The translations under genes and the position numbers were made by a program. From Narcine bancroftii (lineage: Eukaryota), in assembly GCF_036971445.1 (NCBI RefSeq), contig NC_091473.1, forward strand, positions 236,716,001 to 236,780,000: 64,000 nt of DNA, given 5' to 3'. Shown piece by piece: positions 1,958 through 44,904 of the stretch. Every line of letters begins with the position of its first letter. The stretch's first letter is position 1. Under the pieces are notes generated by a model. It did no database searches. It was not told the origin of the DNA and saw only the letters and a program-made list of their open reading frames with translations.

Positions 1958-2820
1958 TAAAAGGAAGGAAATGGGGAAGAAAGGGGCTTCTAAATGTAAA
2001 CTGGAGAGTCAATATTAATGCTATCCACATGGTGGTTACCCAGATGGAAGATGAGGTGTTGTTCCTCCAATTTGTTGAGTCCTCAGTCTGGCAGTGCATG
2101 AAACCATGAACAGACATGTCAGCAAGGGAATGGAATGGGGAATCGTGCTGTTATGGTGGGCAATATGCTCAATGAAGCAAACTTCCAGTCTGAACCCAGT
2201 CTATCCAATGTAGAGGAGATCACAGAGGGAGCACAAAATGCAGTAGATAACCCTTGCAGATTCACGAGTAAAATGTTGCTTTACTTGAGAGGACTGTTTG
2301 GGGCCCTGAATGGTAGTGAAGGAGGAGAAGTGGACACAAGTGGAGCAACTCCTACAGTCACGGGGGTAGATGCCAAGGAGACGATTACTGGGGAAGGAGG
2401 AGTGGACAAGGGAGTCATGGAGAGTGGTATCTGTGGAAGGCAGAGAGAGAAGGAGCAGGAAATATGGTGGGATCACTTAATAGGTAGTGGAAATGGTGGA
2501 GGAGGACATGTTGGACACAGAGGCTAGTGGGGTAGTAGGTGAGGACAAAGAGAATTCCTGTTATTTTTGCATGTGGGGGTTGATGGAGCCAAAGCAGATG
2601 TACAAGTATTAAAGGATATGCAAATGAGAGCCAAGTTGATGGTGGTAGAGGGAAAGCCACATTGTTTGAAGGAGGTCATTCTTCCCCCTTTCTTTCTCAT
2701 CTTTAATTAAGATGCATGCTTGCTTTTTTTCTTATACCTTGAAGTTAGGGCTCAGGCCCAAAATGTCGGGAATATATATTTAACTGCAAGACTGGCTGAG
2801 TTCCACCTTGATTTCTGTAA
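1595..2820 (-). mobile_element. Penelope-like element remnant with GIY-YIG endonuclease and an inverted terminal copy
   Basis: Minus ORFs read IQGPKQSSQVKQHFTRESARVIYCILCSLCDLLYIG and MSVHGFMHCQTE. Segment 2680-2820 is an inverted copy of 1640-1800, as is typical of PLE pseudo-LTRs. Confidence 0.75.
1889..1955. repeat. poly-G plus (GA)n microsatellite
   Basis: Directly visible. Confidence 0.97.
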
Positions 2821-3099
2821 GGATCGAGTCACCCTAGTTTCCTACCCCTTGGAATTTTACAAAGATACACTCTGGTTTCTTCCTCTTTGTTTGAATAATT
2901 CAGTTTGATGTTTAGTTTTTCTGTTTGATATTAACTTCTGATTCCCTCGTGCTTTTAATTTAAATTCTCTCTCCAAATTTAAACTCTGCCTTTTCATGTT
3001 CCTCTAATCTGTTCACACCCTTCACCCCACCCTAACCCTCCTCTGCCCCTGCTTTAAATTGATCTATAATAACTAAGTTAAACCCATATTTGCCAAGTT

Positions 3100-3470
3100 A
3101 AATGATAATAAAAAATTTTAAAAACAAAACAAAAACCTAAAAAAAACTACATCTAATCTACCCCCTCCCTCTAATTAAGGTTACCTAAAAGGAAATTGTA
3201 CATTCAATGGCGACCACCATATCCAGACATCAGATGGAGAATCTCCAGAGCATTCAAAAATACTGTACTACCTATCATAATAAAATTCTATGACTGGACC
3301 TACTTCTTTATAAATTGAAACTTTCTATCTTTAATGTTGTCTGTTTTCTCCAAATTTAAATAAGACACCACATCATATATCCATTGTGTATGGGTAGGTG
3401 AAGAATCATCTTTCCATTTTAATAAAATTGCTCATCTGGCTATAAACTTCTGGGTCAAGAGAAAAACCAA
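3100..3470 (-). mobile_element. L1-like LINE 3' fragment
   Basis: Minus strand reads approximately ARAILLKWKDDSSPTHTQWIYDVVSYLNLEK, homologous to ORF 36449-36742. Confidence 0.55.
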
Positions 3471-3499
3471 ACCAAAAATTACATAAATCTAAATCAGTA

Positions 3500-4159
3500 A
3501 TTTCGGAAAGGTGCTTTAGGTGTGGTGTGGAGATTGGGACCCTTTATCCATTCAAAGGTGAGATCCTTCTGAGAGGACCTGGGGACATTCTGAAAAAAAT
3601 TACAAAGGTGGATTTTCCACAGGATCCAGAATTGTACCTTCTGGGAAATATTATGGACATGAGTTTTAAACTGTACAGATCCCAACTAAACAGTATACGA
3701 TGGAATATGGAAATGCAGAGTTGTATTCCCCTGGAGAAAAGCACATATAATTTAAGGAGGAAATATGATACATTTGTTAGTGTGTGGCAACCCTATCTGC
3801 AACACATTGGTACGCAGATATAATTATAAAGGAAACACAACAATCTGTGGCAGTAGTGAAATTATTGAGATCAATGAAGTGGGTCATGGCGCAGATGATG
3901 TGCTCTTCTATTTTGTTCCTTATCTTTTCTTATTTTGGGTTTCTTTGGGTTTTTCTTAAGTTCCGTTAAGGGTTTGTGAGTTTACCAATATTTGGTTCTT
4001 TTTATTTGTTTAATTTATATAACATTTTCTTTGTTTTATTAGGATATTGGAGGGAGGTTAAAAATAGACTCTGTATGTAATATTGTTGAAAGAGATTGTG
4101 TTGTTTGTTTGGATTTGTATGAGTCCTTGAAAATCAAAAATAAAATATTCAGAAAAAAG
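3500..4159 (+). mobile_element. L1/Tx1-like LINE 3' end
   Basis: ORF 3527-3823 (PQDPELYLLG...WNMEMQSCIPLEKSTYNLRRKYDTFVSVWQPYL) is an ORF2 C-terminus, followed by a T-rich 3' UTR, AATAAA and an A-rich tail ~4140-4159. Confidence 0.75.
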
Positions 4160-4164
4160 AGTTG

Positions 4165-4705
4165 ACAGATCATGTTACAATTCTGCACATTTCTAGTGAG
4201 ACCACACTTAGAATATTTTGTTCAATTTTGGTCATTTCATTACAGGAAGGGTGTGGAAGCTTTAGAGAGGGTGCAGAGGAGATTTACGTGGATGTTGCCT
4301 GGATTGGGAAACAAGTCTTATAAGCAAGGTTGGCAGAGCTAGGACTTTTCTCTTTGGAGCAAAGAAGGACAAAAGGAGACATAATAGAGGTCTACAAGAT
4401 TGTGAGAAGCATAGATAAGGTGGAGTGCCAGTGTCTTTTTCCCAAGGCAGGAATTGCAAACACCAGAGAACATCTGAACAAAGTGACAGGAGGTATGTTT
4501 AAGGCTAAGTTTTTACTCAGGGTGCCTTGAATGCCTTGGCGGGGATGATGGTGAGATAAAACATTAGGAACATTTAAGAGTTTCTTAGGCAGGATTAAAG
4601 AAAAAGGAGGTTATGAGGTAGGAAAGATTTAGTTTTTTTTGGTAGGAATATATAGGTCGGCATAACATCAAAGGGCCTGTACTCTCTTATAATGTTCTTT
4701 GATCT
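4165..4705 (+). mobile_element. CR1 LINE 3' part
   Basis: VRPHLEYFVQFW...LERVQRRFT...ELGLFSLEQRRTKGDIIEVYKI motifs. Confidence 0.85.
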
Positions 4706-14941: not shown

Positions 14942-15268
14942 TCTTTTTCTTTTCTTTGGCTTGGCTTCGCGGACGAAGGTTTATGGAGGGGTATGTCCAT
15001 GTCTGCTGCAGGCTCGTTGGTGACTGACAAGTCACAGGCAGGCACAGTTGCAGCGGATGCAAGGGAAAATTGGTTGGTTGGGGTTGGGTGTTGGGTTTTT
15101 CCTCCTTTGTCTTTTGTCAGTGAGGTGGGGTCTGCGGTCTTCTTCAAAGGAGGTTGTTCCCCGCCGAACTGTGAGGCGCCAAGATGCACGGTTGGAGGCG
15201 ATATCAGCCCACTGGCGGTGGTCAATGTGGCAGGCACCAAGAGATTTCTTTAAACAGTCCTTGTACCA
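14942..15268 (-). mobile_element. RTE/BovB-like LINE 3' end (subfamily B), 5'-truncated
   Basis: Matches the 3' end of the 19679-20786 copy, has a (GAAA)n tail and shares diagnostic bases with 48734-49482. Confidence 0.92.
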
Positions 15269-15269
15269 T

Positions 15270-15830
15270 CGTCGGCAAAGAGTAGTTCACGGACATAAGA
15301 AATAGAGAATTAGGCCTCAAATTGGACAAAGTGCAAAAAAATTCATTATGATAGCTTTAGCGATATCAAAAAAAATGTATAATGTCAACTTGGAAAATGG
15401 AAGAGAGCATGAGTATTCAGCAATGGTACGTGGAAATGAATAACTGTATTCCATTGGAAAAAAATAACATAATTAAAAAAATAAAGTCACAATGTTTGAA
15501 CAAATTTGGGAACCATACATGGAACATATCAGAGAGTTTGCCTACGACCTCCATCCCCTAAAATGAGAATGAAAATGACTAGATTCAGTGTGTAATAAAG
15601 AGATGACTAATTTTTCTGTTTATTTTCCTTTGTGTGAAAATATTGTTTTATGGTTTTATTGTATTGTGTATGTTGAATATTTATGGGTTTTGGAGGGGGG
15701 TGTGTAGAGGGGAGGGAGGGAAAGGGGGAGAAAAGACCACTGTGTAAACTTAATGAGATACCTCTGTACATATTTTGGTTGATATGGTTCACAGTGTGAA
15801 AAATAAAAATTATATTAAAAAAAAGAAAAA
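15270..15830 (+). mobile_element. L1-like LINE 3' end
   Basis: WYVEMNNCIPLEK...MFEQIWEPYMEHI motif, G-rich UTR, AATAAA and poly-A. Confidence 0.7.
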
Positions 15831-18089: not shown

Positions 18090-18826
18090 ATACAGTAGAA
18101 GTCCAGGGTCCACTATCCACATACGTTCTGAGAATCCAGGAGCCTAATGACTTGGGGGGAAAAACTGTTGCCCCATCTGGATGTAAGGACCTATATGCTA
18201 CGGTTCCTCCTACCAGATGGCAGAAGGAAGAACAGTTTACATGAGGGATGTGTGGAGTCCTTCACAATATTTACTGCCTTTTACCTGCATCAAGTGTTGT
18301 AGATGTCCTTCATGGTAGGAAGAGCCCCCAATGATCTTTTCCATTGACTTAACTATTTTCTGGAGGGTCTTGCGGTCTGAGTAGGTACAGCATCCAAACC
18401 AGGTGGTGAAGCAGTTGCACAGGATTCTCAATACATCTTCTGTAGAATGTAGTGAGGCTGGAGGTTGGGAGATGAACTTTCCTCAGCCTTTAAAGGAAGT
18501 AAAGGCTATGTGTTAAGGGACCAGGTGAGATTCTCGGCTAAGTGCACTCCAAGAATTTGGCTAAGTGCACTCCAAGAACTTGATTCTCTTGATTGAGCCA
18601 TCAAAGATCAATGGAGTGTGGTTCCCCCAGGCCCTCCTGAAATCAACAACCATCTCTTTTGATTTATTAATGTTCAGATACAAGTTGTTGGCTCTGCACC
18701 AGTCTGTTAGCAACTGTACCTCATCTCTGTACGCTGACTCCTCATTATTACCAATAAGGCCCACCACAGTCACTTCATCAGCAAACTTGATGATATGGTT
18801 CGAGCTGTGTTTAGCTGCACAGTCTT
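18090..18826 (-). mobile_element. Rex1/Babar-like LINE RT fragment
   Basis: IIKFADEVTVVGLIGNNEESAYRDEVQLLTDWCRANNLYLNINKSKEMVVDFRR. Confidence 0.85.
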
Positions 18827-19111
18827 AACATCTTGTGGTTTATTTGAGCTACTGAAGCAACTTGGTGGGTCAAGCAACATCTGTGAAGAAAATGGACAAT
18901 CAAAATCCTTCCTCTGGACTGGTAGACATTGCTCACAGGGCTGAATTTTTTTTTTGTTCTTTCTGCCCTAGTTCAGATTTCAAACATGTGCAGTATTTTG
19001 TTTGTTGTTATGGACCATGGACTGACCTTTTGGACTGTATTTTTGGATTGGCTTACTTGACCAGGCTTTTTATAAATATATCTGTATATTTACTATTAGT
19101 AAATATAGTAG

Positions 19112-19680
19112 TTTCATGGCTTGGTTCAGCATCATGCTGAAGAAGATTGAAAAGAGGGTTGGTGCCAGAACACAGCCTTGCTTCACGCCATTGTTAATGG
19201 AGAAGGGTTCAGAGAGCTCATTGCTGTATCTGACCCGATCTTGTTGGTTTTCGTGCAGTTGGATAATCATGTTGAGGAACTTTGGGGGACATCCGATGCG
19301 CTCTAGTATTTGCCAAAGCCCTTTCCTGCTCACGGTGTCGAAGGCTTTGGTGAGGTCAACAAAGGTGATGTAGAGTCCTTCGTTTTGTTCTCTGCATTTT
19401 TCTTGGAGCTGTCTGAGGGCAAAGACCATGTCAATAGTTCCTCTGATTGCGCGAAAGCCGCACTGTGATTCTGGGAGAATATTCTCGGCGACACTAGGTA
19501 TTATTCTATTTAGTAGAATCCTAGCGAAGATTTTGCCTGCAATGGAGAGCAACGTGATTCCCCTGTAGTTTGAGCAGTCTGATTTCTCGCCTTTGTTTTT
19601 GTACAGGGTGATGATGGTGGCATCACGAAGATCCTGAGGCAGTTTACCTTGGTCCCAACAAAGCTTGAAAAACTCATGCA
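19112..19680 (-). pseudogene. RTE ORF2 reverse transcriptase N-terminal half (inverted segment)
   Basis: LPQDLRDATIITLYKNKGEKSDCSNYRGITLLSIAGKIFARILLNR...ESQCGFR...FVDLTKAFDTV...GVKQGCVLAPTLF, with no stops. Confidence 0.92.
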
Positions 19681-20786
19681 ACAATGAAGACGCTGTTTAC
19701 ATCCGGTACCGCACGGATGGCAGTCTCTTCAATCTGAGGCGCCTGCAAGCTCACACCAAGACACAAGAGAAACTTGTCCGTGAACTACTCTTTGCAGACA
19801 ATGCCGCTTTAGTTGCCCATTCAGAGCCAGCTCTTCAGCGCTTGACGTCCTGCTTTGCGGAAACTGCCAAAATGTTTGGCCTGGAAGTCAGCCTGAAGAA
19901 AACTGAGGTCCTCCATCAGCCAGCTCCCCACCATGATTACCAGCCCCCCCACATCTCCATCGGGCACACAAAACTCAAAACGGTCAACCAGTTTACCTAT
20001 CTCGGCTGCACCATTTCATCAGATGCAAGGATCGACAATGAGATAGACAACAGACTCGCCAAGGCAAATAGCGCCTTTGGAAGACTACACAAAAGAGTCT
20101 GGAAAAACAACCAACTGAAAAACCTCACAAAGATAAGCGTATACAGAGCCGTTGTCATACCCACACTCCTGTTCGGCTCCGAATCATGGGTCCTCTACCG
20201 GCACCACCTACGGCTCCTAGAACGCTTCCACCAGCGTTGTCTCCGCTCCATCCTCAACATCCATTGGAGCGCTTACATCCCTAACGTCGAAGTACTCGAG
20301 ATGGCAGAGGTCGACAGCATCGAGTCCACGCTGCTGAAGATCCAGCTGCGCTGGATGGGTCACGTCTCCAGAATGGAGGACCATCACCTTCCCAAGATCG
20401 TGTTATATGGCGAGCTCTCCACTGGCCACCGTGACAGAGGTGCACCAAAGAAAAGGTACAAGGACTGCCTAAAGAAATCTCTTGGTGCCTGCCACATTGA
20501 CCACCGCCAGTGGGCTGATAACGCCTCAAACCGTGCATCTTGGCGCCTCACAGTTTGGCGGGCAGGAACCTCCTTTGAAGAAGACCGCAGAGCCCACCTC
20601 ACTGACAAAAGGCAAAGGAGGAAAAACCCAACACCCAACCCCAACCAACCAATTTTCCCCTGCAACCGCTCCAATCGTGTCTGCCTGTCCCGCATCGGAC
20701 TTGTCAGCCACAAACGAGCCTGCAGCTGACGTGGACTTTTTACCCCCTCCATAAATCTTCGTCCGCGAAGCCAAGCCAAAGATAAG
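19114..20786 (+). mobile_element. RTE/BovB-like LINE with 5' inversion
   Basis: 11-bp TSD ATATAGTAGTT (19103-19113/20787-20797); 19114-19680 is antisense RT and 19679-20786 is sense RT-to-3' end. Confidence 0.95.
19679..20729 (+). pseudogene. RTE ORF2 RT C-terminal half to stop codon (5'-truncated; catalytic motif reads FADN)
   Basis: YRTDGSLFNLRRL...LLFADNAALVAHS...FTYLG...QLRWMGHVSRM...C-terminal Cys/His motif; open frame. Confidence 0.92.
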
Positions 20787-21003
20787 ATATAGTAGTTATT
20801 AATAAATATAGTTAAAATTTAACCCTTTTGTATTCTGGTGGTTTGGAGCATAATAAAGAGGGGGATCGTCCAAAGGTACAAACAAATTTGTTAGCTTCAA
20901 TTGATTAGTGATCAATCGGTTGAGTCTGAATCAAGCTGTAGCATAGTAATTGGTGGAATTCCAGTCTGGTCTTGGAAATTCCTTTGATAAAAATAACTAA
21001 AAG

Positions 21004-21007
<4 letters not shown>

Positions 21008-21046
<39 letters not shown>

Positions 21047-21049
21047 GTG
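21008..21049. repeat. (GT)n microsatellite
   Basis: Directly visible. Confidence 0.97.
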
Positions 21050-22699
21050 AAATCAACAGCAACAAACCAGCAGCCACGGATATAGAGAGATCTCTTTGAG
21101 AATTTTAAAAAGGCTAAAAAAAAGCACAAGTTTGTGACTATTGCCAACAAATTTACAATTGCTTCAGTAGAACAAGTGAGAAAGGTGGAGATTGGGAGGA
21201 AAATTGCAAAATACTACAGGAAACAGGAAATTTTGACAAATATTGTTAGAACAATTTCCCAAGAGTAAATTTTCTGAGAAAGTACAGTTGGAATTAAAGA
21301 GATTAAAAATGGAACAGGAGGAATGAGAAATAGAAGCAGAGGAGAAACATGATCCATTGGTCTTTTTGGGTAAAATTAAAAATAAGAATAGAGGCTTTTT
21401 AAATTGGAGTTTAATTTTACAAGAGTATGATTTGATGATAACATACATAAGGTGAAAGGACAATGTGATAGCCAATTGTCTGTCCAGATGCTAACCTTTG
21501 TAAATTAAATTACTTACTGTGTGCGTTTGCTTTATATTTTGGTTGTGACACTTTAATTAATTACTAACATTTTGTTCTTGCAGACCAACATTTTCTTTGT
21601 GGTTGGGAGGAGTTATGGACTTTTGGACTGTGAACTGTCACTTTAAAGGATGAATTTCTACTGAGAATTGTGTAACATTGATTGTGGCACAGTTCAGTGC
21701 TGGTTTGCCAAGGTCGAGCTATGCAGATAATAAGAGAGGAATGCATTAATTGCTGAGGAGGAGGAGATGATCCCGATTGCTGAGGCAGAGAAAGAGAGAG
21801 AGTTCAGTGGAGCAGCCAGGAGAATACACAGAGACAGAGTTGAGAACAGTTCTGGCTGACTGAATATGAGTGTGACAAAAAGGTCTCTTTGAGGCTGCAG
21901 TTTCAGAAGGAAATTGTGGAAAGCTGTGTGAAAGGCACAGGCTTCATAAGTGTGGTGATTAAAAAAAAAACCTTGAAGAAACCTGCAAAGGATTTGTAAG
22001 TTTATTGCCAAGCAACATCAGTCATTTCTCTCTCTCTCCAGCGTTCATTCTACACTCATTTTGTTATCAATTGAAGAACTGAACTTGGACATTGAACTAT
22101 GAGAGTGAATTCTGTGGACTGTATTTTTGGACTGACTTACTTGACTGGACTGACCTAGGGTTTTGGGGGATGTTTCCTTTTGTTCTTGAATATTGGAGAT
22201 CGACTGTAATGGTCTGGTGTATCCCCCCCACCACATACACTTTATTTATAAAAAATATTTGTATATTTACTATTAAAGGCATATAGTGGGGTTAATTTGG
22301 GCAAGATATATTGTGAAGTTATTAATGAATATAGTTAAAATTTAACCCTTTTGTATTCACAAGATCACAAGCCCATCCAGTCTGCTCCGCGAATCCACCC
22401 TGAGCTAAACTGTTCTCGCTTCCAGTTCCAATTTCCTGCCTTTTCCCCAAATCCCTTGACCTGTCAAATTCCACCCCCGCCCCCCCCACCCAACTTTAAA
22501 CTCCCTCCACAGCTGTATGTGCCAACAAATTCTTGTTGGGTTGGGGGCACATGTCTCAAGACCAGCTACTTTTCCCACACTTTTCCATTTTAAGACTTTG
22601 CATTTGTAGTACAAATTATTATAAATAGCATCCCTTCAAGGGGGGGGGGGGGGCTGTCTTGATCACCAAGGATGATCATGTCCAGTCTCACTGAGCATC

Positions 22700-23379: not shown

Positions 23380-24818
23380 AAACAATGCTGGAGAAACTTA
23401 GCAGGTCGAACAGTAACTTAGCAGGTCGAACAGTAACTTAGCAGGTCGAACAGTAACTTAGCAGGTCGAACAGTAACTTAGCAGGTCGAACAGTAACTTA
23501 GCAGGTCGAACAGTAACTTAGCAGGTCGAACAGTAACTTAGCAGGTCGAACAGTAACTTAGCAGGTCGAACAGTAACTTAGCAGGTCGAACAGTAACTTA
23601 GCAGGTCGAACAGTAACTTAGCAGGTCGAACAGTAACTTAGCAGGTCGAACAGTAACTTAGCAGGTCGAACAGTAACTTAGCAGGTCGAACAGTAACTTA
23701 GCAGGTCGAACAGTAACTTAGCAGGTCGAACAGTAACTTAGCAGGTCGAACAGTAACTTAGCAGGTCGAACAGTAACTTAGCAGGTCGAACAGTAACTTA
23801 GCAGGTCGAACAGTAACTTAGCAGGTCGAACAGTAACTTAGCAGGTCGAACAGTAACTTAGCAGGTCGAACAGTAACTTAGCAGGTCGAACAGTAACTTA
23901 GCAGGTCGAACAGTAACTTAGCAGGTCGAACAGTAACTTAGCAGGTCGAACAGTAACTTAGCAGGTCGAACAGTAACTTAGCAGGTCGAACAGTAACTTA
24001 GCAGGTCGAACAGTAACTTAGCAGGTCGAACAGTAACTTAGCAGGTCGAACAGTAACTTAGCAGGTCGAACAGTAACTTAGCAGGTCGAACAGTAACTTA
24101 GCAGGTCGAACAGTAACTTAGCAGGTCGAACAGTAACTTAGCAGGTCGAACAGTAACTTAGCAGGTCGAACAGTAACTTAGCAGGTCGAACAGTAACTTA
24201 GCAGGTCGAACAGTAACTTAGCAGGTCGAACAGTAACTTAGCAGGTCGAACAGTAACTTAGCAGGTCGAACAGTAACTTAGCAGGTCGAACAGTAACTTA
24301 GCAGGTCGAACAGTAACTTAGCAGGTCGAACAGTAACTTAGCAGGTCGAACAGTAACTTAGCAGGTCGAACAGTAACTTAGCAGGTCGAACAGTAACTTA
24401 GCAGGTCGAACAGTAACTTAGCAGGTCGAACAGTAACTTAGCAGGTCGAACAGTAACTTAGCAGGTCGAACAGTAACTTAGCAGGTCGAACAGTAACTTA
24501 GCAGGTCGAACAGTAACTTAGCAGGTCGAACAGTAACTTAGCAGGTCGAACAGTAACTTAGCAGGTCGAACAGTAACTTAGCAGGTCGAACAGTAACTTA
24601 GCAGGTCGAACAGTAACTTAGCAGGTCGAACAGTAACTTAGCAGGTCGAACAGTAACTTAGCAGGTCGAACAGTAACTTAGCAGGTCGAACAGTAACTTA
24701 GCAGGTCGAACAGTAACTTAGCAGGTCGAACAGTAACTTAGCAGGTCGAACAGTGTACTTTATTCTGCAAAGATGAAGATACATAACCAACGTTTGGGGC
24801 TTGAGCCCTTCATCAAGT
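23380..24818 (-). mobile_element. Penelope-like element terminus (pseudo-LTR) hosting the minisatellite
   Basis: Collapsing the array to one unit gives acaatgctggagaaacttagcaggtcgaacagtgtacttt...aaccaacgtttggggcttgagcccttcatcaag. This is the reverse complement of the terminus attached to the GIY-YIG remnant at 12630-12730. Confidence 0.8.
23395..24754. repeat. Perfect minisatellite, 68 copies of AACTTAGCAGGTCGAACAGT (20 bp)
   Basis: 1360 bp; every unit is identical on inspection, with no spacers. Confidence 0.99.
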
Positions 24819-43560: not shown

Positions 43561-43710
43561 AGGAGCATCAAAATAAGGATTGGCAGTCTGAAGAATAGCT
43601 TTTTCCAAAAGACTGTGAGACTGATGTACAGTATCCTGTAATTGTAACAATCATCCCAAATATTCGTATTTATCTATATTTGATTGTTTATGTGATTTTT
43701 ATGTACTATG

Positions 43711-44620
43711 ACCTCCTAGCGAAGATTTTGCTTGCAATCTGAGGTCCTCCATCAGCCAGCTCCCCACCATGACTACCAGCCCCCCACATCTCCATCGGGC
43801 ACACAAAACTCAAAACGGTCAACCAGTTTACCTATCTCGGCTGCACCATTTCATCAGATGCAAGGATCGACAATGAGATAGACAACAGACTCGCCAAGGC
43901 AAATAGCGCCTTTGGAAGACTACACAAAAGAGTCTGGAAAAACAACCAACTGAAAAACCTCACAAAGATAAGCGTTTACAGAGCCGTTGTCATACCCACA
44001 CTCCTGTTCGGCTCCGAATCATGGGTCCTCTACCGGCATCACCTACGGCTCCTAGAACGCTTCCACCAGCGTTGTCTCCGCTCCATCCTCAACATCCATT
44101 GGAGCGCTTTCATCCCTAACGTCGAAGTACTCGAGATGGCAGAGGTCGACAGCATCGAGTCCACGCTGCTGAAGATCCAGCTGCGCTGGGTGGGTCACGT
44201 CTCCAGAATGGAGGACCATCGCCTTCCCAAGATCGTGTTATTATGGCGAGCTCTCCACTGGCCACCATGACAGAGGTGCACCAAAGAAAAGGTACAAGGA
44301 CTGCCTAAAAAAATCTCTTGGTGCCTGCCACATTGACCACCGCCAGTGGGCTGATATCGCCTCAAACCGTGCATCTTGGCGCCTCACAGTTTGGCGGGCA
44401 GCAACCTCCTTTGAAGAAGACTGCAGAGCCCACCTCACTGACAAAAGGCAAAGGAGGAAAAACCCAACACCCAACCCCAACCAACCAATTTTCCCCTGCA
44501 GCCGCTGCAACCGTGTCTGCCTGTCCCGCATCGGACTTGTCAGCCACAAACGAGCCTGCAGCTGACGTGGACTTTTACCCCCTCCATAAATCTTCGTCCG
44601 CGAAGCCAAGCCAAAGAAAG
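43711..44620 (+). mobile_element. RTE/BovB-like LINE (subfamily A) with a short inverted 5' segment
   Basis: 10-bp TSD ATGTACTATG (43701-43710/44621-44630); 43714-43738 is antisense ORF2, then sense from CTGAGGTCC to the (GAAA)n tail. Confidence 0.93.
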
Positions 44621-44904
44621 ATGTACTATGCATTGCGTGCTTTCGTGCGTGCACCATGGTCTGGAGAGCTGCTGTTTTGTTGGGTTGTATATGTACAATC
44701 AGATGATAATAAACTTGAACTACATTTCAAGAATACTTCAATGGCCATAAAGTACTTTGGGGTACCCTAATGCTATGCAAGATGCAATGGGTGAATTATT
44801 CATTTTATCCATTATTTAGTAGAGAAGGTATATGCCTACATTTTACTTTATGTTAAAGTTTGATATTTGACATAAACATTAGGAAAGGTTTTCAGTATTC
44901 AAAA

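Follow-up and report, generated by a model that had tools for sequence, protein, structure and literature searches.

The insertion at positions 19103-20797

The 64-kb stretch of Narcine bancroftii DNA that was analysed (the window) contains, at positions 19103-20797, a single dead insertion of a young RTE-type LINE with one open reading frame (ORF). The 5' part of the insertion, about a third of it, is inverted (Table 1). No gene of the host was recognized in the window. The element lies between two exact copies of the 11-mer ATATAGTAGTT, which are the only two in the window. Three additional matches with one mismatch are found elsewhere in the window, compared to a chance expectation of 1.13 at one mismatch or fewer. 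The reading LHEFF...NQAMK is on the minus strand, and NNEDAVY...HKRACS with the stop codon is on the plus strand. The antisense half matches positions 3-143 of the Pfam RVT_1 profile, and the sense half matches positions 147-205.

The two halves were aligned separately to unflipped sister copies. One of these, the full-length copy L034 (4276 nt, ~4.3 kb), serves as the reference. The left half is the reverse complement of reference positions 3164-2596 and the right half is the sense of positions 3170-4273, reaching the 3' end. This agrees with the initial annotation, which described one insertion within an 11-bp target site duplication (TSD), with antisense reverse transcriptase (RT) on the left and sense sequence on the right. 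The annotation also held that flipping the left part restores a nearly continuous ORF2 with a few nucleotides missing, and the number of reference bases absent between the halves is indeed 5. Both of the 2-nt microhomologies that it reported are present, TT being common to the TSD end and the inverted segment and CA to the two halves, but at a single locus it must be considered that about 15% of random junctions share at least 2 bases by chance.

Table 1. Features of the insertion and its target site (window positions unless a locus is named)
Feature	Position	Strand	Remarks
Left TSD	19103-19113	+	11 bp; last 2 bases shared with the inverted segment
Inverted 5' segment	19112-19680	-	569 bp, with the 2-nt overlaps at both ends counted; N-terminal RT part, from reference 2596-3164
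TT microhomology	19112-19113	.	TSD end/element; putative second priming site
Inversion junction	19679-19680	.	CA microhomology; 5 reference bases absent between the segments
Sense 3' segment	19679-20782	+	Reference 3170-4273; remaining RT, Cys/His-rich C-terminus, stop codon, short 3' UTR
Tail	20783-20786	+	Short, A/G-rich TAAG, a tail type (AAG/TAAG) shared by the family; not poly(A)
Right TSD	20787-20797	+	11 bp
Older repeat at the target site, and paralogues	19060-19113 and 20787-20835; 22240-22358; L132:1500-1620

The halves have a common origin by several measures. Each is 98-99% identical to the same young sister copies, and their divergence from the family majority is similar (6 of 569 positions in the inverted half and 5 of 1104 in the sense half, p = 0.2). 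The ranking of 29 long unflipped copies by identity agrees between the halves (Spearman 0.71), and no direct repeat of at least 6 nt private to one half was found when both halves were checked. The idea that the halves belong to different subfamilies, each with a TSD of its own, thus finds no support. Two independent insertions in opposite orientations at one site could be imagined in so dense a family, with 8 3'-anchored copies in the window. However, neither a 3' end nor a tail is present in the antisense half, which ends 5 nt short of the sense half. Together with the shared ranking and the lack of separate direct repeats, this makes two insertions improbable in the extreme.

The element and its family

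The reference contains one stop-to-stop frame of 1225 amino acids with Exo_endo_phos and RVT_1 domains, corresponding to an endonuclease of the apurinic type and an RT. A separate ORF1 is absent from it, and the sole other plus-strand frame of at least 200 amino acids is located within the 1225-residue frame. In the family, the 3' UTR is short and the tail is of the AAG/TAAG type instead of poly(A) (99 rows). The full-length 5' ends (L033, L034 and L250) consist of 3-6 tandem GC-rich units of 169 bp, followed by a variable 15-bp repeat coding for STSSP. The 169-bp units are presumably comparable to the monomer promoters of mouse L1. In the 72 copies with a TSD of 9-15 bp, A is the first base in 70, a count that the tail rule of the TSD caller may favour. 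T is found in 60 of these copies at position -1, in 50 at -12 and in 51 at -13.

The element fits the RTE clade by its architecture, comprising one ORF and a microsatellite tail, and by its TSD of ~11-12 bp and its target signature. A single endonuclease-RT frame, a short 3' UTR and an A-rich microsatellite tail are also found in RTE-1, BovB and AviRTE. The TSD of 9-14 bp, its start with A after T and the excess of T upstream resemble the insertion signature of animal RTE elements (PMC6007223), which includes a T excess ~10 nt upstream and for which a TSD peak of 10-12 bp is cited in PMC4245944. On the other hand, the tandem 5' units and the N-terminal STSSP repeat set the full-length copies apart from these RTE-clade LINEs, and no named RTE reference is among the protein and structure matches to the element. 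The matches in the Protein Data Bank are to L1 and R2 and are distant (E ~1e-19). The closest named proteins belong to marine invertebrate and teleost elements, namely those of Diadema (79% identity), Branchiostoma (74%), Penaeus (74%) and Oryzias (72%), and none is labelled BovB. The C-terminal half of P0001 (L034:1557-5234, minus strand) is 72-79% identical to these sea urchin, amphioxus, shrimp and medaka proteins. This level of identity suggests that the element may have been transferred horizontally among aquatic animals.

Target site and read evidence

The insertion is positioned inside an older repeat. In the paralogues of this repeat, the corresponding position has ~35-40 additional bases and a direct repeat that is imperfect. 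Because they differ at the insertion site, the TSD is not proven by an empty paralogous site.

Logan contigs from four runs were placed on positions 18300-21500. The depth of the read contigs in the flanks of the locus is 8-10. A 69-nt contig without mismatches and with a single-copy depth of 8.5 covers positions 19070-19138, spanning the left junction. It has 25 bases on the element side, which is under the 31-base rule, and its run may be that of the assembled sample. No contig spanning the inversion junction at 19679-19680 was present among the matches listed. A read joint between 19099 and 20793, with a depth of 22-25, may come either from an allele that lacks the insertion or from one of the older host repeat's paralogues. 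Another joint, between 19112 and 19679 and classified as 'opposite strands', turned out to be the ordinary unflipped form of the family.

An assembly artefact or a chimeric read would be favoured by the very high copy number of the family and by the lack of an inversion-junction contig among these matches. However, neither would be expected to give rise to the flanking TSD, the 5-nt gap and another 29 inversions with differing breakpoints on many contigs. The contig across the left junction would agree with this, though it enters the element by only 25 bases. The case against an artefact is built on the TSD and on the recurrence of the inversion in the family, and we regard this explanation as very unlikely.

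Inverted copies in the family

Three sources in the 3.3-Gb assembly supplied copies of the element: genome searches that used its 3' parts as queries, a search with the target sequence, and 990 kb of blind-chosen stretches, 100 kb of which adjoin the window. The genome searches supply the best 40 candidates each, and the sample therefore leans to young, long copies. It comprises 211 distinct copies, all of which extend to the 3' end. Thirty of these, including the target locus, are inverted; the other 181 consist of 173 truncated or full-length copies and 8 with a displaced piece on the same strand. Four copies ran off their locus. Gathering TSD-flanked copies and counting the inversions had been proposed as a check in the initial annotation, and applied to this sample it has added 29 inverted copies to the first.

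The frequency of inversion was estimated from 160 copies picked regardless of their 5' structure. This set excludes copies found with the target query only, those in the window, two copies that were the source of queries, and incidental copies in other fetched loci. It contains 21 inverted copies (13.1%, Wilson interval 8.7-19.2%), or about one in eight. The blind stretches alone gave 3 inverted copies out of 36 (95% range 3-22%). The proportion rises to 30% (18 of 60) for the structure-blind copies that have a TSD of at least 9 bp. Inversion is absent from the 31 copies with a sense part shorter than 575 nt, compared to 21 of 129 for the rest (p = 0.015).

L002 and L003 at first appeared to share the breakpoint of the target locus, but they are independent inversions with other breakpoints, the pieces of which had been joined by the search. 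The window contains a second inverted copy of the family, at 43701-44630 on the plus strand, with a 10-bp TSD and 3 extra bases. Its inverted piece is 18 nt long, derives from a position 636 nt upstream of where the sense part begins, and is followed by that sense part of 880 nt. An older copy (89%) on the minus strand, at 14950-15295, has at its 5' end a 29-nt same-strand piece from ~650 nt further upstream, which is an internal deletion or a template jump. At L305 (G000:C8:181463583-181467310), two very young copies (99.6-99.8%) are arranged 5'-to-5' within 3.7 kb.

Junctions and target site duplications

Of the 29 resolved inverted copies, 27 have a TSD of 9-14 bp. Two of these 27 TSDs are ambiguous, being located in (TA)n repeats; a single mismatch is found in two, and the start of one junction was corrected by hand. 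A TSD of at least 9 bp is present in 52 of 170 non-inverted copies and in 42 of 130 non-inverted copies matched for length (p = 9e-10 against the inverted copies), with a chance call rate of 7/600. Thus ~70% of the non-inverted copies in the whole family have no TSD of this length, suggesting that trimming is frequent, or that TSDs are short, where the 5' end is truncated.

Microhomology of at least 2 nt is found at 18 of 25 TSD junctions, the set from which two microsatellite copies, two copies with no TSD and one at an edge were dropped. The null expectation is 3.8 on average, with a maximum of 12 in 5000 simulations. The length of the microhomology at the TSD end peaks at 2-3 nt. At the inversion junction, 14 of 30 copies share at least 2 nt (null mean 4.5), a number that was reached in none of 5000 simulations. 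Extra bases replace the microhomology at 13 of the 30 inversion junctions, and extra bases are found at 2 of the 25 TSD junctions.

The two pieces of an inverted copy are usually close to each other in the reference. In 20 of 29 copies the starts of the inverted and sense pieces are no more than 30 nt apart (binomial p ~2e-29 against a random position), and in 15 (52%) no more than 20 nt. Ten of these 15 cases are overlaps of 1-19 nt with a median of 11.5 nt, as counted by hand. Gaps of 152-2391 nt separate the pieces in 6 of the 29 copies. The gaps in L030, L095, L110, L121 and L014 were set by chaining (indels and the variable 15-bp repeat). The inverted piece reaches upstream of the sense piece in 25 of the 29 copies, and in the other four (L022, L044, L090 and L127), where it is 16-52 nt long, it lies inside the span of the sense piece.

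An inverted copy might also arise by rearrangement of DNA, if a longer colinear copy were broken during or after insertion and its 5' part rejoined backwards by microhomology-mediated repair. Such an event would likewise leave a small gap and short microhomologies, and the extra bases at nearly half of the inversion junctions are of the kind left by end joining. However, the breakpoint would have to fall exactly at the edge of the TSD with the TSD remaining whole, as it does in 27 of 29 inverted copies, whereas less than a third of the non-inverted copies retain a TSD of at least 9 bp. Furthermore, the breakpoints have no inverted repeat beyond a few bases, and the two halves of the insertion are equally diverged. 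Rearrangement at the DNA level is therefore an unlikely origin of the insertion.

A different process is described for insertions of R2 made in human cells (PMC11371274). The first cDNA snaps back and is extended by copying itself, which joins antisense element sequence to the upstream target DNA, as observed here. This would account equally well for the four copies in which the inverted piece has a fold-back geometry. In the remaining 25 of 29 copies, the template of the inverted piece lies outside the first cDNA. At the target locus the 569-bp inverted piece is positioned wholly upstream of the sense piece, so that its template is missing from the first cDNA. Snap-back is refuted for this locus, and as an explanation of the insertion it is highly improbable.

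Probable twin priming

The model of twin priming, in which both nicks at the target serve as primers, is said to originate from Ostertag and Kazazian in 2001. As given in PMC2912911 and PMC4245944, it is probably the best reading of the insertion at the target locus, to judge from the junctions. The endonuclease of the element would nick the bottom strand, and reverse transcription would start at the AAG-type tail of the RNA. The top strand would be cut ~11 bp away before copying ends. The 3' end of the top strand (..TT) could then pair with an internal AA ~1.1 kb from the 3' end of the RNA and prime a second cDNA of ~570 nt. The first cDNA would halt 5 nt short of the second priming site, and the ends of the two cDNAs would be joined via CA. 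With both nicks used as primers, the overhang would be spared trimming, and inverted copies would keep their TSD much more often than truncated ones.

Several properties of the junctions agree with twin priming. The TSD runs into antisense element sequence on the top strand, and the top strand must therefore have been extended on a sense template. Since the position on the template is tied to the end of the other cDNA, we infer that both were copied from the same molecule, which is most simply the RNA. Microhomology peaking at 2-3 nt at the TSD end is as expected if the top-strand overhang paired with the RNA, and the near-constant presence of a whole TSD fits the use of both nicks as primers before trimming. 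The proposal of the initial annotation that this family undergoes twin priming is thus backed by the 29 further inverted copies and their matching junction statistics, the mechanism itself being deduced from the junctions.

Comparison with other LINEs

The order of TSD, inverted 5' part, sense 3' part and TSD, with microhomology at both junctions, is the same as in primate L1. [quoted passage not shown] The resulting share of 30.9%, for TSDs of at least 5 bp, is close to the 30% found in the RTE family for TSDs of at least 9 bp. Inverted L1 copies keep a long TSD (PMC4245944, PMC2912911). Long-read data on human L1 give 18-22% inverted copies, 46% of cDNA ends no more than 20 bp apart, compared to 52% in the Narcine family, and a median overlap of 12 bp (PMC12016303). 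The overlap is about as long as the TSD in both. The differences concern the element itself and its target. Unlike L1, the RTE family has one ORF and no separate ORF1, and ends in an AAG-type microsatellite instead of poly(A). Its TSD is 9-14 bp long compared to 14-16 bp in L1, its nick site is T|A with a run of T 12-13 nt upstream, and extra bases are common at its inversion junctions.

In cell assays, inversions were obtained only when human L1 was used in human cells, with the exception of one Nimb-2 insert, and were tied to a long overhang; 5' inversion was concluded to depend on L1 and host factors (PMC4245944). The exception, Nimb-2_DR in chicken DT40 cells, is also a non-L1 LINE with a TSD peak at ~12 bp and a 5' inversion, but it represents one event in cultured cells, compared to 30 natural genomic copies in the present family.

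No report of 5' inversions in RTE elements was found in literature searches; supplements might hold counts, and the absence of such reports is not established. Ichiyanagi and Okada reportedly described RTE junctions in 2008, and inverted retrocopies are said to be the subject of a 2009 MBE paper. The available portions of PMC6007223 and PMC4245944 do not mention inversions for the RTE clade, those of PMC13708176 and PMC13320814 report none, and in PMC5389967 twin priming is cited in the references only.

Significance

The insertion represents a known mechanism in a type of LINE for which no published account was found, and in this family the process is frequent and statistically similar to that of L1. 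The main element for which 5' inversion is documented is mammalian LINE-1. The finding broadens a known process and does not uncover a new mechanism. About 13% of copies are inverted, with L1-like junctions, in an element that has neither ORF1 nor poly(A), which points to the length of the overhang, and not to L1-specific parts, as the condition for inversion. Twin priming may then be a general outcome for any LINE that leaves a 3' overhang of at least ~10 nt, and not a trait of L1 or of mammals. In favour of this generalization, to which we give even chances, are the rate in the RTE family, which resembles that of human L1 (~30% of TSD-flanked copies), the same rule that the overlap equals the TSD, and an inversion in an L1-type family of the same host. 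If the generalization is true, ORF1p and a poly(A) tail are dispensable for twin priming.

The finding also bears on the gene-writing tools derived from RTE-1, the truncation frequencies of which PMC13708176 describes as undisclosed. If twin priming is as general as proposed, RTE-based tools would make flipped inserts at appreciable rates. The family constitutes a large natural data set on the cutting of the second strand and the joining of two cDNAs.

L1-type elements of the same genome

A 5.9-kb element with two ORFs, poly(A) and TSDs of 10-18 bp is also present in the genome. It is of the L1 type by architecture; its first ORF has no Pfam match. An abundant young derivative (L061:1-2336, L146-L175) has kept the first ORF and the 3' end but is missing most of ORF2. 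We take this derivative to resemble HAL1.

The 3' end of the derivative matched 30 loci. One of them, L162, is inverted; its gap measures 5 nt, its overlaps 3 nt and its TSD, determined by eye, ~16 bp. At the remaining 29 loci, 22 copies ran off the locus, 4 are truncated and uninverted, and 3 have only the 3' end in common with the derivative. Thus 5' inversion in this host goes beyond the RTE family, and the effects of the element and of the host are inseparable in these data. An L1-type copy in block C5:200.01 Mb was also considered as an inversion and rejected as unclear, since it has no TSD and more L1 5' sequence adjoins it.

The window also contains a perfect tandem array at positions 23395-24754, comprised of 68 copies of a 20-bp unit with 100% matches.
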